From an uncultured Clostridia bacterium (GTDB lineage: Bacteria > Bacillota > Clostridia > Christensenellales > UBA1242): DNA of 64,000 nucleotides. A program made the translations under genes and the position numbers. How positions within the stretch are numbered: position 1 is the first letter of the stretch; the number at the start of each line of letters is the position of its first letter. Below, piece after piece: positions 29,976-34,260 of this stretch. Under the pieces are notes generated by a model. The model was not told the DNA's origin. It worked only from the letters and a program-made list of their open reading frames with translations, and ran no database searches. The stretch lies in NCBI GenBank assembly GCA_944384465.1, contig CALWTK010000003.1:34383-98382 (forward strand), read 5' to 3'.

Positions 29976-30677
29976 CTATTTGTCTAACATAATAATTCGA
30001 CCGCAGTGCTCACATGATAACATCTTTTTATTCTTCAATTTCTCAATAAAATTGAGAGACAATTCTGTCTTGCATCCACCACAAAATCTAGAATCTTCCA
30101 AGTTTACATACACCGGAAATATACCATTTGCTTTCATCTCTTTGTATTTGGCGTATTTTTCTTTATCTTCTACCTTTGGCTCTAGATTTTTTATTTTATT
30201 TTCCAGCTCGGCTATTTTAGGGGCGACCTCTTGTCGTTTTTCTTCAATCCTTGCCTTGATGTTCACCGAACGTTTCTTTGCTTCTGTGAGTTTATTCGAG
30301 AGTTCAGAACTTTTCCTAACAATCTCTTCTGCCTTACGCACCAGTTCTTCCACTCGTCTATTTTCTTCACTGAGTTCGCCGACAAGACCGTTCGCATCTG
30401 TTATTAATGAGGATATGTTGTCCAAATTTATATTTTCTACATTGCGTTTCTTTATGATTTCACTATTGCCTTTAAATTTTGAATACCTATTCATTGCGGC
30501 ATTGTAATTTTTGATAATTTCATTTGCTTGCGATTCTAATTGTTCGAAACGCGATCTACCTTCTTGCAACACTTTTTTGTAATTTTTGAAATCAATACTT
30601 GCGGGGCATTTATCTACTTCTCGATTGAGTGCCCTGATTTGTCTATCTAAATTTTGTATTTCTAATATAACTTTCAT
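29976..30677 (-). CDS. coiled-coil protein with a C-terminal C4 zinc ribbon (COG1579-like)
   Basis: Long heptad-rich region, then CGGC...x17...CEHCGR. Confidence 0.7.
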   Translation of the reverse strand: MKVILEIQNLDRQIRALNREVDKCPASIDFKNYKKVLQEGRSRFEQLESQANEIIKNYNAAMNRYSKFKGNSEIIKKRNVENINLDNISSLITDANGLVGELSEENRRVEELVRKAEEIVRKSSELSNKLTEAKKRSVNIKARIEEKRQEVAPKIAELENKIKNLEPKVEDKEKYAKYKEMKANGIFPVYVNLEDSRFCGGCKTELSLNFIEKLKNKKMLSCEHCGRIIMLDK

Positions 30678-31777
30678 TATTTTCTCCCTTTACCAATCTC
30701 TTCTTCATCATCTGACAAATCATCACGCAAACGTTTTAATTTCGATGGATGACGCAATTTTCTAAGTGCTTTTGCTTCAATTTGACGAATACGCTCACGG
30801 GTAACTGAAAATTCACGCCCGACTTCTTCTAGTGTCCTAGGGTGAGCGTCATCTAATCCGTAACGCAAACGTATAACTTTTTGCTCTCGTGGAGTGAGTG
30901 TCTCCAAAACGCTCATCAACTGTTCCTTTAACATATTTTGCATGGCAATATCTTGCGGAGACAAAGCATTTTCGTCTGGGATGATGTCTCCAATCTTACT
31001 ATCTTCTTCATGTCCCATTTTGCTCTCTAATGAAATAGGATCTTGAGATATTCTTTGTACTTCTAGCACTTTTTCAACAGTCGTATTCAACCTCTCCGCA
31101 ATCTCTTCAATACGTGGGTCCCTACCCAACTCTTGCATCAACTCACGAAACGCCTTGTTGTGCTTCGAAATCGTCTCCACCATGTGTACTGGCACACGCA
31201 TCAATCTCGCTTGGTCAGAAATGGCACGTGTAATGCCCTGTCTAATCCACCAAGTGCCGTATGTTGAAAATTTGTATCCCTTTGTATAATCAAATTTTTC
31301 AACCGCTTTGATCAATCCCAAATTCCCTTCTTGTATCAGATCAAGGAATGGCATATTGTGTTTTTGATACCTTTTAGCAATACTTACGACCAATCTTAAG
31401 TTTGATTCAATGAGTTTATTCCTAGCATATTCGCTATGCTCTTCTGTCAACTGCCTGCTGTATTCCCTCTCTTCCTCAGGCGTCAATAAAGGAATTTTGC
31501 CAATGCTTTTCAAATAAATTTTCACTGGATCATTGACATTTATTTGGCTGATTAAATCTTCAAATTCTTTATCATCAACCGGAATATCGCTTATTGTGTC
31601 CGTGATTGTGATACCATTTTCAGTCAAATATTGCTTGATTTGTTCGACTTCATCTGCATCAATTTCTTCATATTTTCTAATCAAATTGCTACACAGATTA
31701 TCATCCGAAATTGATTTTTGATGTTCATCTTTTAATTGTTGTAACAATTTTTTCTTTATCTCATCAACATTAACCAT
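30677..31777 (-). CDS. rpoD: primary RNA polymerase sigma factor
   Basis: Regions 1.2-4.2 are all present ([35 protein letters not shown]...; [20 protein letters not shown]). Start taken at ATG 31777 (MVNVDE) behind GAGGAG. The track's 31792 start is a TTG. Confidence 0.95.
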
Positions 31778-32297
31778 TCTTTTTCTCCTCAAATTCTTGT
31801 ATTATTTTTTCTCTAACCCAGTAAACTATATAATCATTAAAATCAATCTTTGCGTCAACTTTATAATTTTCTAGCGCTTCCAACAACCCTAAATTTGCCA
31901 CCTGTATCAAGTCTTGAATATCTACATCCTTATGAAAAGAGTGATAATTCACACACATCAGCATCAAATCCATCAACTTGGAAGTAAGAATTTTATCCTT
32001 AATTTGTTTGTCTAAAGTCTCTTTATATATCTTCAAAAGGTAGTCCAATTCTTTCTTTGATATTCGCTTCGGTTTATTCTTCTTTATATCAGCATAATAA
32101 TCAACCAAACGCTCCAATTCACTTTCGTCAATATCCTGCGTAGCGCTAGGTCGCAATTTCGAAAGAAAATATAATTGAACGTCCTCTCGCTTGTATCTAC
32201 CATTTTTTGCAAGTTCTAAATACAAAGTATCAATGTCTTGCACTCCTAAATTTTGTAGATATTTATACAAGGCATCCTGTTTATCAATCTCTATCAC
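31770..32297 (-). CDS. sigma-70 region-2-only protein (truncated sigma-like)
   Basis: 175 aa. The C-terminal half aligns with rpoD region 2: [44 protein letters not shown] versus [43 protein letters not shown]. The GTG start overlaps the dnaG TGA (GTGA) behind AAGGAG, and its last codons overlap the rpoD ATG. Confidence 0.7.
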
Positions 32298-34084
32298 TGT
32301 TTCTCCTTATTAATTTTATCCGTCAGTTCTTTAATTTTAACCAAATAATTCAATCTTTCATCATCGGTTTCACTTTTGATCAACAAATTTCTATATTTTT
32401 CTTTCTCTTCTTGCAGCATATATAGCTTCACTCGCTTAATTGTGTCCGCAATCATAGTTTCAAATACAGCATCATCTGGAAAATTGTAATTGATCACCCT
32501 ATCTATCATGGATTTATCATTTATCTCAAAATTATCAAACAATGTAGATATGTTAAAATCTGTTTTTTCTTCCACTTTTTGTCTTAAAAACCTATACAAA
32601 TCACTTAATTCATCTAATTCATCATCAGGAGAGAAAATTCCTGATATTTCGTCAAAATTTGTTATTTTTTTATACAAAATGGCGGCAAGAAGCATGATTT
32701 TGCTATCAATTATATATTTATTGTTGACAGTTTCGCTGATTTTTTCGTCATGTCGGGTGTCTACTTTTTTTGTCTCTTTTTTGGTCATACTTTGTCGCAA
32801 AACATCGAGTGGAATTCTAACCAATTGCTGAACATAGTTTAGATAGATTTCCTGCTCGGCGGGAGACGAAAATTTGGAAATATAATTCAGTGCTTCTTGA
32901 ATATATTTGTTCTTATCCGCATTAGAATTAAAATCATATTTTTTCGCACTATCTGACAAGACGAAATCTACACAGTCTTGCGCATGAGATAGCATGTCCA
33001 TAAAATTGTCTTTTCCATATTTTTTCAAATATTCGTCAGGATCTTTTGCTTTATTCACATCTAGGCGCACCACTTTGACATTCAACCCTTCTTCTTTCAA
33101 AATATCTATCGCCTTATAGGTCGCCAGTCTTCCCGCATTGTCCGCATCAAGGCACAAGATGACATTATCTACAAGTTGTTTGATTTTTTTTGCATGTTGC
33201 ACGGTCAAAGCTGTCCCCATACACCCTATTGTATTAGTGAGCCCCGCTTGATGACATGCAATAACATCAATATGCCCCTCTACAATAATGATGGTGTCCA
33301 GCATATGACTTTTTTTGAGGTCTCGCACAAAATTGTAAGCAAACAAAATCTCACTTTTATTAAACACTATCGTCTGTGGTGTGTTTTTGTATTTTGTATG
33401 ATCGGGCGCTTCACTGACGCTCCTGCCTGAGTAGGCAACGACATCCCCAAATCCATTAAATATAGGGAATATCAACCTTGTTCCATAAAAATCATACAAA
33501 CCCCCTCTTTCATTTTTGCCAACCACACCAGCGTTGATCATATCTTGGGGATTGAAACTTAAACTCAACAAATATTTTGGCAAATCATCATAATTTAATG
33601 ATGCACCTATCTGAAATTTTTCTATCATCTCAGAATTAATTTTCCTAGACTGCAAATATTGTGCCTGTTGAGAACTAGGTGCTCCTATAAGATTCTTGTG
33701 ATAAAACTCGGTAGTCGCTTTCAATATTTGATAAGCAATATCACGCTGCTTTTTCTTGCGTTGCATCTCATCATTTTCTGCCATGGTTGGCATCTCTATA
33801 CCAGCATTTTTGCAAAGCATTTCTACAGCGGTCAAAAAATCCACATTTTCCAATTTCATAATAAGAGTGATGACATCGCCACTCTCCCCACAACCAAAAC
33901 ATTTGAAGAATTGTCCGTCCTGCCTTATTGAAAAAGATGGAGTCTTTTCATTATGAAATGGACAACATGCCCAAAAACTATTGCCTCGCCTTTTCAGCGT
34001 TATGTATTTGCTCGCTATATCAACTATATCATTTTTGGCACGTAACTCATCTAGAAATGCAGAAGATATACTCCCTCTCGTCAT
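32294..34084 (-). CDS. dnaG: DNA primase
   Basis: Zinc ribbon CPFHNEKTPSF...CFGCG, TOPRIM (EGHIDV...DADNAG) and a C-terminal helicase-binding region. Start taken at ATG 34084 (MTRGSISS) behind GGAG. The track's 34099 start is a TTG. Confidence 0.95.
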   Translation of the reverse strand: MTRGSISSAFLDELRAKNDIVDIASKYITLKRRGNSFWACCPFHNEKTPSFSIRQDGQFFKCFGCGESGDVITLIMKLENVDFLTAVEMLCKNAGIEMPTMAENDEMQRKKKQRDIAYQILKATTEFYHKNLIGAPSSQQAQYLQSRKINSEMIEKFQIGASLNYDDLPKYLLSLSFNPQDMINAGVVGKNERGGLYDFYGTRLIFPIFNGFGDVVAYSGRSVSEAPDHTKYKNTPQTIVFNKSEILFAYNFVRDLKKSHMLDTIIIVEGHIDVIACHQAGLTNTIGCMGTALTVQHAKKIKQLVDNVILCLDADNAGRLATYKAIDILKEEGLNVKVVRLDVNKAKDPDEYLKKYGKDNFMDMLSHAQDCVDFVLSDSAKKYDFNSNADKNKYIQEALNYISKFSSPAEQEIYLNYVQQLVRIPLDVLRQSMTKKETKKVDTRHDEKISETVNNKYIIDSKIMLLAAILYKKITNFDEISGIFSPDDELDELSDLYRFLRQKVEEKTDFNISTLFDNFEINDKSMIDRVINYNFPDDAVFETMIADTIKRVKLYMLQEEKEKYRNLLIKSETDDERLNYLVKIKELTDKINKEKQ

Positions 34085-34260
34085 CTGTAAAATCTCCAAT
34101 CAGTAACATAATACATCATATAAAAAAATTATCCTTAATATTTTTAAAATTTACAAATAAAAAAATTATGTTTCAAACACTTTTTTTAACTCTCTTCATA
34201 ACTAAATACAACGAAATATATAAAACTCCTAACATTTTTAAAAAATTTATTGTTCTTTAT

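Follow-up and report, generated by a model that had tools for sequence, protein, structure and literature searches.

A gene for sigma domain 2 alone, located between dnaG and rpoD in Candidatus Onthoplasma, and its possible role at the sigma site of RNA polymerase

RpoD (SigA) is the primary sigma factor of bacteria, and its gene shares the housekeeping dnaG-rpoD operon with that of the primase DnaG. In the genome of a gut bacterium of the candidate genus Candidatus Onthoplasma, we found that these two genes are separated by an open reading frame (ORF) of 175 codons, called X hereafter, which codes for a stand-alone sigma domain 2. All coordinates are those of the window, i.e., the whole stretch of 64,000 nucleotides (nt) that was analyzed. 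X is a genuine protein-coding gene under purifying selection, and its product, as read from its sequence and its structural model, is composed of sigma regions 1.2 to 2.4 behind an N-terminal domain of 57 residues. Tentatively, we favor the view that X is produced along with SigA and occupies the site where sigma factors dock on RNA polymerase, but is blind to promoters. X and its parts are located as follows.

31770 to 32297, minus strand: X, stand-alone sigma domain 2 gene, 175 codons plus TAA, GTG start (from the ORF list, the translation and Pfam)
32127 to 32297, minus strand: N-terminal three-helix domain of X, residues 1-57, where conservation within the family is highest; no significant match to its sequence or to its fold
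31782 to 32126, minus strand: sigma regions 1.2 to 2.4 of X, residues 58-172 (from hhalign, Foldseek and a PDB profile search)
31866 to 31922, minus strand: region 2.2-like helix of X, residues 126-144, the presumed docking surface for the beta-prime clamp helices

X is a sigma protein reduced to regions 1.2 to 2.4

A preliminary description of this DNA had proposed that X contains sigma region 2 and lacks regions 3 and 4, which is borne out by profile searches. The Pfam model Sigma70_r2 (PF04542) matches residues 121-172 of X with 31.8 bits (cut-off 24), and the models of sigma regions 3 and 4, including PF04545 and PF08281, give no match in X at E values up to 10. X terminates at region 2.4, exactly where the linker between domains 2 and 3 would start, and the next codons are those of rpoD. 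The protein is 28% identical to the adjacent RpoD over 68 residues (BLASTP, E 8e-8), and the comparison of its profile with that of the RpoD of the genus, using hhalign, aligns X 16-169 with RpoD 37-188 (probability 98.6%, E 1e-15). When used against the Protein Data Bank (PDB), the profile of the X family retrieves SigA/RpoD chains at E about 2e-8, and 1sig_A at E 1.5e-7. Moreover, NCBIfam sigma models of several groups align on residues ~60-170, and the only PHROGs family found with X is phrog_351, a generic sigma factor family. X nevertheless stays below the equivalog cut-offs of group 1 primary sigma factors (22.6 bits with NF006666, cut-off 572; 26.3 bits with TIGR02393, cut-off 354).

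The structure prediction agrees with these alignments. The AlphaFold2 model of X, built with 20 homologues, is all-helical, with a predicted local distance difference test score (pLDDT) of 90.7 and a predicted template modelling score (pTM) of 0.86, and it superposes on sigma regions 1.2-2.4. In a Foldseek search of the PDB with this model, the top matches are all sigma factors, the best fit being Staphylococcus aureus SigA (8x6f_E; 107 columns, root-mean-square deviation 1.9 Å). The N-terminal 90 residues had been regarded as unrelated to anything recognizable. This holds for about the first 57 residues but not for residues ~58-100, which align with sigma regions 1.2 and 2.1.

X is a genuine gene under purifying selection

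A word-indexed protein search gave 58 homologues of X, 167-175 amino acids (aa) long and 53-100% identical. In a search of 1.84 billion proteins, ~14 clusters were found below 1e-30, the full-length ones being 153-180 aa long, and the next matches were generic sigma factors at ~1e-14. Because of this drop in score, we conclude that the X family is small and sharply bounded. In databases, its members are named "hypothetical protein" or carry a generic sigma label.

The ratio of nonsynonymous to synonymous substitution rates (dN/dS) of X is 0.04-0.13, and that of RpoD 0.01-0.05 (NG86, closest pairs of the genus, dS 0.5-1.0). Within the genus, X is 50-64% identical, DnaG 60-67% and RpoD 74-86%, so that X evolves faster than its neighbors. 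Public chicken-gut sequencing runs contain four strain variants of X, i.e., three third-position changes and V65I. In a chicken-gut metatranscriptome library, contigs extend across X (31750-32197) and across the dnaG/X junction (32210-32471), with a depth similar to that over rpoD, which fits with a co-transcription of X with its neighbors.

It could be argued that X is a functionless remnant of a partial rpoD duplication, staying open only as the carrier of the ribosome-binding site of rpoD and of the translational coupling. Indeed, the C-terminal tail of X encodes the Shine-Dalgarno (SD) sequence and the start of rpoD, and the faster evolution of X points the same way. However, none of the carrier genomes has a broken frame, the length being 153-180 aa even down to 30% identity, the low dN/dS extends over the whole length of the gene, and conservation peaks in the N-terminal domain, far from the SD sequence of rpoD. 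Moreover, relatives that lack X couple rpoD to dnaG without it. We consider such a remnant highly improbable. The marks of a pseudogene (broken frames, relaxed selection, patchy retention) are absent from X, whose frame is intact in 35 of the 35 genomes of the genus. A decaying duplicate of rpoD, which the preliminary description had suggested looking for, is thus rejected on the intact frames, the dN/dS values and the full retention among all sampled congeners.

The core-binding helix is kept and most SigA-type promoter contacts are replaced

The residues of X can be read against those of Escherichia coli sigma70 with a simple register, X residue n corresponding to sigma70 residue n+274 (from the BLASTP and PDB profile alignments). 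In bacterial sigma factors, region 2.2 is the main determinant of binding to the coiled coil of the beta-prime subunit, and the proteolytic sigma70 fragment 114-448 (PDB 1SIG) binds core RNA polymerase. In X, residues D129, Q132, N135, G137 and A141 are the equivalents of D403, Q406, N409, G411 and A415. The 20 members of the genus all keep the equivalents of D403, Q406, G411, L412 and A415, and 18 of them keep that of N409. Over the whole family, D129, Q132, G137 and A141 are nearly invariant, and region 2.2 holds the best-kept sigma-2 columns.

Most positions for SigA-type contact with the -10 DNA have changed. In E. coli numbering, the replacements comprise K414 by E/D, Y421 by P/E/S, R423 by A/S, Y425 by I/L, K426 by D/S/N and T429 by D, to which are added Q437 by E/K, T440 by I/K, R441 by E/K/D, R448 by N, N383 by K/Q/Y, K392 by L/I and R393 by N. 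All these positions are invariant in the RpoD of the genus, and they contact the -10 DNA in primary sigma factors. Over the columns equivalent to E. coli 398-444, the net charge is -4.3 in X and +2.0 in RpoD. The preliminary description had seen in X a core-binding and -10 domain. Region 2.2, which binds core in sigma factors, is indeed kept, but the name of -10 domain has to be qualified, since most of the sigma-A-type -10 contacts are replaced.

A possible mechanism, and what weighs against it

Taken together, the sigma-2 fold, the kept docking helix, the lack of domains 3 and 4, the loss of most SigA-type -10 contacts and the message shared with rpoD make a promoter-blind occupant of the sigma site the simplest reading of X. 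By this way, X would be translated off the dnaG-X-rpoD message, its start being coupled to the stop of dnaG and its last codons harboring the ribosome-binding site of rpoD. Its region 2.2 helix would dock on the beta-prime clamp helices of the core enzyme, a site also used by SigA and by the sporulation sigma factors. The complex of X and core would be promoter-blind because regions 3 and 4 are missing and most SigA-type -10 contacts are lost. X would compete for the sigma site, or occupy it, and hence tune the amount of core available to SigA and to the alternative sigma factors, or hold idle core, and the conserved N-terminal domain would add a further contact. Core binding, promoter-blindness and the regulatory effect are what we infer from sequence features. 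Among the roles put forward in the preliminary description, competition for the beta-prime clamp helices appears as the best-fitting one. A broader proposal, which we put forward as possible but rather doubtful, is that X is a natural, endogenous and promoter-blind sigma mimic, co-translated with the primary sigma factor, that sits on the beta-prime clamp helices and divides core among SigA, sporulation sigma factors and elongation factors, its N-terminal domain recruiting or blocking something more; X would then stand for a new class of regulator of bacterial RNA polymerase. The distribution of other RNA polymerase factors gives no signal of phyletic complementarity with X: the CarD domain is found only in Mfd, and NusG is present, in X-bearing and X-lacking genomes alike.

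Several observations weigh against a promoter-blind occupant. The residue E407, which is involved in core binding, is replaced by V/I/T in X. On the DNA side, Y430 is kept (Y156 in X), W433/W434 are Y/F and W/Y (Y159/W160 in X), and R436 is mostly kept (R162 in X), so that X may have kept some function in DNA melting. The alternative sigma factors of the same genome are also devoid of the SigA-type residues, with charges of -1 to +1 over the same columns, and some X orthologues reach a net charge of 0 or +1. Since the alternative sigma factors differ at the same positions, the loss of SigA-type contacts is no proof of a loss of DNA binding. Judging from its residues, X appears to have lost the SigA-type reading of the -10 element; it does not follow that it has lost all DNA binding. 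The RNA-library contigs over X are no proof of transcription or translation, as such libraries can carry DNA. The most conserved part of X is its N-terminal domain, the role of which is not accounted for by occupancy of the sigma site. When this domain alone is compared with the N-terminus of RpoD (hhalign), only a marginal similarity is obtained, with a probability of 3.9% and a score of 16.7, the highest score among 30 shuffles of the columns being 15.2. Finally, X lies on a long branch, and the tree gives it no clear sister among RpoD and the alternative sigma factors, so that its descent from rpoD is plausible only.

Another way to act on the same surface would be during elongation. The docking site on the clamp helices is common to sigma region 2 and to the factors of the NusG family. 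X could thus act on the elongating RNA polymerase, competing with NusG at the clamp helices after the departure of SigA and modulating pausing or termination. Such a competition is possible since NusG is found in the genomes that carry X as in those that lack it, and sigma-dependent pausing requires the architecture of regions 1.2-2.4. On the contrary, the residues that would read a -10-like pause element are mostly replaced in X, and nothing in our data is specific to elongation. We regard this role as quite unlikely.

No region-4 partner was found for X

By its domain content, X could also be the small subunit of a split sigma factor, reading a -10-like element while a separate sigma-4-like protein reads the -35 element. 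In the known split sigma factors (SigO-RsoA, Tn916 Sig7-Sig8, T4 gp55-gp33), the two halves are encoded together (bioRxiv 10.64898/2026.10.01.756105). The retention of Y156, of the aromatic pair Y159/W160 and of R162 would suit such a role, and alternative sigma factors with equally non-SigA residues are functional. However, at every locus examined, the neighbors of X are dnaG, a full-length rpoD and a gene for a coiled-coil protein with a zinc (Zn) ribbon. Genome-wide, the sigma-4 models match five full-length sigma factors, i.e., RpoD and four alternative ones, a sixth, SigH, being found through its region 2 only. The only small sigma-4-like ORFs of the genome are YlxM and a protein designated P0211. 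Hence, from the gene neighbors and the genome-wide sigma-4 models, which do not amount to a comprehensive co-occurrence screen, no sigma-4-only partner was found adjacent to X or co-distributed with it. The split-sigma half considered in the preliminary description is therefore improbable in our opinion.

Each candidate partner was rejected on its own grounds. YlxM sits in its standard place, between ftsY and ffh. The other weak sigma-4 matches turned out to be ParB, two helix-turn-helix (HTH) proteins of the XRE type, and P0211. The latter is present in 52 of the 58 genera of the family irrespective of X, which discards it as a specific partner, and in 41 of 41 genomes of the genus. P0211 is encoded outside the window (G000:C10:19969-20454; locus L024:1363-1848, minus strand). 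It is a protein of 162 aa with a weak sigma-4-like HTH, its gene adjoins a terminase-like gene, and it matches PHROG families annotated as "sigma factor" and "transcriptional regulator", resembling phage-type late regulators. Two tentative identities for P0211 are a late regulator of phage type that has been domesticated, and a divergent sigma factor of small size.

Conservation in the family is highest in the N-terminal domain

In the AlphaFold2 model, the N-terminal domain is made of three helices (residues 9-16, 22-31 and 37-46). The family has six invariant columns, five of which (D5, L10, L14, Y26 and G33) fall within residues 1-57. Modeled alone (AlphaFold2), the domain reaches a pLDDT of 70 only, against about 90 inside the whole protein, and this difference suggests that it packs on the sigma-2 body, with which it may form a composite surface. 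No significant match was obtained for it in Pfam, in PDB profile searches or in Foldseek searches of the PDB, and in an Atlas feature search its scores were at most 0.82, which is the chance level. In the whole-protein profile alignment, the X motif DIDxxYxELAxNGRY lines up with the N-terminal region of RpoD, and the global profile alignment pairs X 1-175 with RpoD 1-195. A homology between this domain and sigma region 1.1 is offered as a suggestion only.

Considering this conservation, the N-terminal domain might be the main acting part of X and have a target different from core RNA polymerase. This target could be SigA itself, which X would help to assemble or would hold, both proteins being made in a constant proportion, or primase and the replisome; the sigma-2 part would be a scaffold. 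The concentration of invariant columns in the first 57 residues speaks for this possibility, as do the composite surface suggested by the models and the tight coupling of X translation to dnaG and rpoD. On the other hand, the best-kept residues of the sigma-2 part are those of the core-binding helix 2.2, which is unexpected in a mere scaffold, and the searches run with the N-terminal domain revealed no similarity to known interaction domains. Hence, we judge this alternative unlikely.

The dnaG-X-rpoD junctions

The other features of the locus are the following.

32294 to 34099, minus strand: dnaG, primase (Pfam Zn_ribbon_DnaG, DNAG_N, Toprim and DnaB_bind); 4 nt are shared between its stop and the start of X
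30677 to 31777, minus strand: rpoD/sigA, full-length primary sigma factor, 366 aa, ATG start; the overlap between its ATG and the end of X is 8 nt
32303 to 32308, minus strand: SD sequence of X, AAGGAG, within the final codons of dnaG (read from the sequence)
31785 to 31790, minus strand: SD sequence of rpoD, GAGGAG, formed by the E-E codons of the X tail EFEEKKNG (read from the sequence)

RpoD is complete: Pfam regions r1_2, r2, r3 and r4 are all found, and the NCBIfam RpoD model gives 459 bits. The GTG start of X (32297-32295) and the TGA stop of dnaG (32296-32294) share bases as GTGA, and the TAA stop of X (31772-31770) and the ATG of rpoD (31777-31775) overlap as ATGGTTAA. The preliminary description had the coordinates of the 175-aa ORF and both overlaps right, as well as the AAGGAG motif.

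These junctions are kept in the genus. At the 22 genus-level loci that were tabulated, X starts with GTG in 20 cases and with ATG in two (L052 and L010, which are the same contig), and its start overlaps the stop of dnaG by 4 nt or 1 nt. In the loci with a GTG start, X is preceded at 5-11 nt by AAGGAG or by a motif that differs from it at one base, and AAGGAG itself is conserved 7-9 nt ahead of the start in the loci of the genus. Between the tail of X and rpoD, the junction ...GAGGAGAAA...ATG is kept across the loci of the genus, and the last codons of X overlap the ATG of rpoD by 8, 14, 4 or 1 nt, depending on the species. Since this overlap varies, the relative frame of the two genes is not fixed, ruling out a programmed frameshift that would fuse X to RpoD. 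The C-terminal tail EFEEKxNG (31773-31795, minus strand) is dual-coding, its GAG-GAG codons being the SD sequence of rpoD, so that part of the conservation of the tail reflects a constraint on nucleotides and not on the protein. No internal promoter for X was detected, promoter-like matches numbering 17 against 18.7 expected from shuffled sequence.

Downstream of rpoD, a gene on the minus strand (29976-30677) encodes a coiled-coil protein of 233 aa that ends in a Zn ribbon, matched weakly by Pfam Zn_ribbon_9. This gene begins at the final base of the rpoD stop codon and is also found 3' of rpoD in the relatives L008 and L010. Because of this abutment and of the same order in relatives, the operon seems to be dnaG-X-rpoD-Zn-ribbon. 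At the other end, the dnaG frame opens at a TTG (34099), and an ATG is found five codons further in (MTRGS...; 34084-34099, minus strand), which makes two candidate starts. In the part of dnaG that encodes the C-terminus, an in-frame indel of 9 nt (3 codons) is present at 32606; these codons are missing in other strains from public chicken-gut runs.

In the genomes sampled, X is found in three genera and fits a single insertion

The source genome (~1.07 Mb, 97.7% complete) belongs, with the close relatives that carry X, to Candidatus Onthoplasma (Christensenellales), found in the guts of chicken, rabbit, sheep and other hosts. The survey of the dnaG-rpoD junction that had been advised was carried out on a family sample of 401 genomes from 58 genera, in which we called true X the matches over 180 bits. 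True X is found, at the same place, in 34 of the 34 other genomes of the genus (35/35 with the source genome) and in both genomes of a second genus; in a third genus, both genomes carry a divergent form of reduced length. In the remaining genera of this sample, only cross-matches to RpoD were obtained, at about 50-66 bits. In a sample of 301 genomes of the order, X was found solely in the source genome. The order dnaG-X-rpoD is kept at every locus examined, including those with X proteins that are 30-40% identical, and in the six X-lacking genera of the family that were inspected, dnaG directly abuts or overlaps rpoD.

In the tree, the X sequences form one clade (100/99), and the RpoD proteins of the X-bearing genera form one as well (97/93). 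Together with the abutting genes of the X-lacking genera, these two clades fit with one insertion: X would have a single origin, in the ancestor that two sister genera share with Candidatus Onthoplasma, within an ancestrally tight dnaG-rpoD junction. Judging from the profile alignments, X possibly derives from a duplicated 5' half of rpoD, region 1.1 included. A foreign origin was rejected on composition: the GC content of X and its GC content at third codon positions (GC3; 0.341, against 0.345 for the window) are like those of its neighbors, and nothing suggests a recent acquisition.

Two divergent forms deserve a mention. At a sister-genus locus (L112, G340:C3:55200-60400; protein P0085), X is about 153-160 aa long and lacks roughly residues 77-97, between regions 1.2 and 2.1; in the same genus, RpoD has an N-terminal extension (frame of ~433 aa). 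A metagenomic protein of 128 aa, P0104, carries an unrelated N-terminus of 78 residues followed by 50 X-like C-terminal residues (DLQDLVQNANIGL...); P0104 may stem from a copy that was rearranged, or from a chimeric assembly.

Comparison with known systems and significance

X belongs to the sigma family, in which its architecture and its place in the operon are undescribed. The preliminary description knew of no such gene in the dnaG-rpoD operon; likewise, our full-text literature searches found no description of a sigma-2-only gene between dnaG and rpoD, which is no proof that none exists. The closest comparison is domain 2 of primary sigma factors, as in the sigma70 fragment 114-448 (1SIG). 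X shares with it the fold, the order of regions and the helix 2.2 motif DLIQxxNxGLxxA. However, X is not a fragment: it is a natural, separately encoded and selected gene, with its own orphan N-terminal domain. It further differs from the primary sigma domain in that its -10 and DNA-backbone contacts are mostly substituted, its surface is more acidic and its scores fall far below the NCBIfam RpoD cut-offs.

The split sigma factors (Bacillus subtilis SigO-RsoA, Tn916 Sig7-Sig8, T4 gp55-gp33, SPO1 gp34-gp33) comprise a small subunit that binds RNA polymerase and in which, as in X by its domain content, region 2 is the only sigma region (bioRxiv 10.64898/2026.10.01.756105). The genes of these subunits adjoin that of a region-4 partner and they drive a dedicated regulon, whereas X adjoins a complete rpoD in a housekeeping operon. 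With the NusG/RfaH family and the controllers of sigma access, X would have in common its proposed action, i.e., to occupy the docking site of sigma region 2. In contrast to them, X is itself a sigma paralogue, unrelated to the NusG/RfaH family in fold and ancestry.

The hosts of X are uncultured bacteria from the guts of chicken and other animals, and its range covers three genera and some metagenomic relatives. X is small (175 aa) and confidently modeled, which makes binding and competition assays with a heterologous Firmicute RNA polymerase straightforward. If our reading is true, X would be the natural counterpart of sigma region-2 fragments, which have been used in vitro for decades. Sigma factors compete for core RNA polymerase, which is available in limited amounts, and this competition lies at the center of gene control in bacteria. 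It is known to be controlled by anti-sigma factors, which bind sigma, by small molecules or RNAs, and by phage proteins. X is a fixed part of the housekeeping dnaG-rpoD operon, and selection has maintained it throughout a genus of bacteria with genomes of ~1 Mb. It would thus, if a promoter-blind occupant, provide these bacteria with a decoy or place-holder of their own at the sigma site, a solution different from those of the known controllers.

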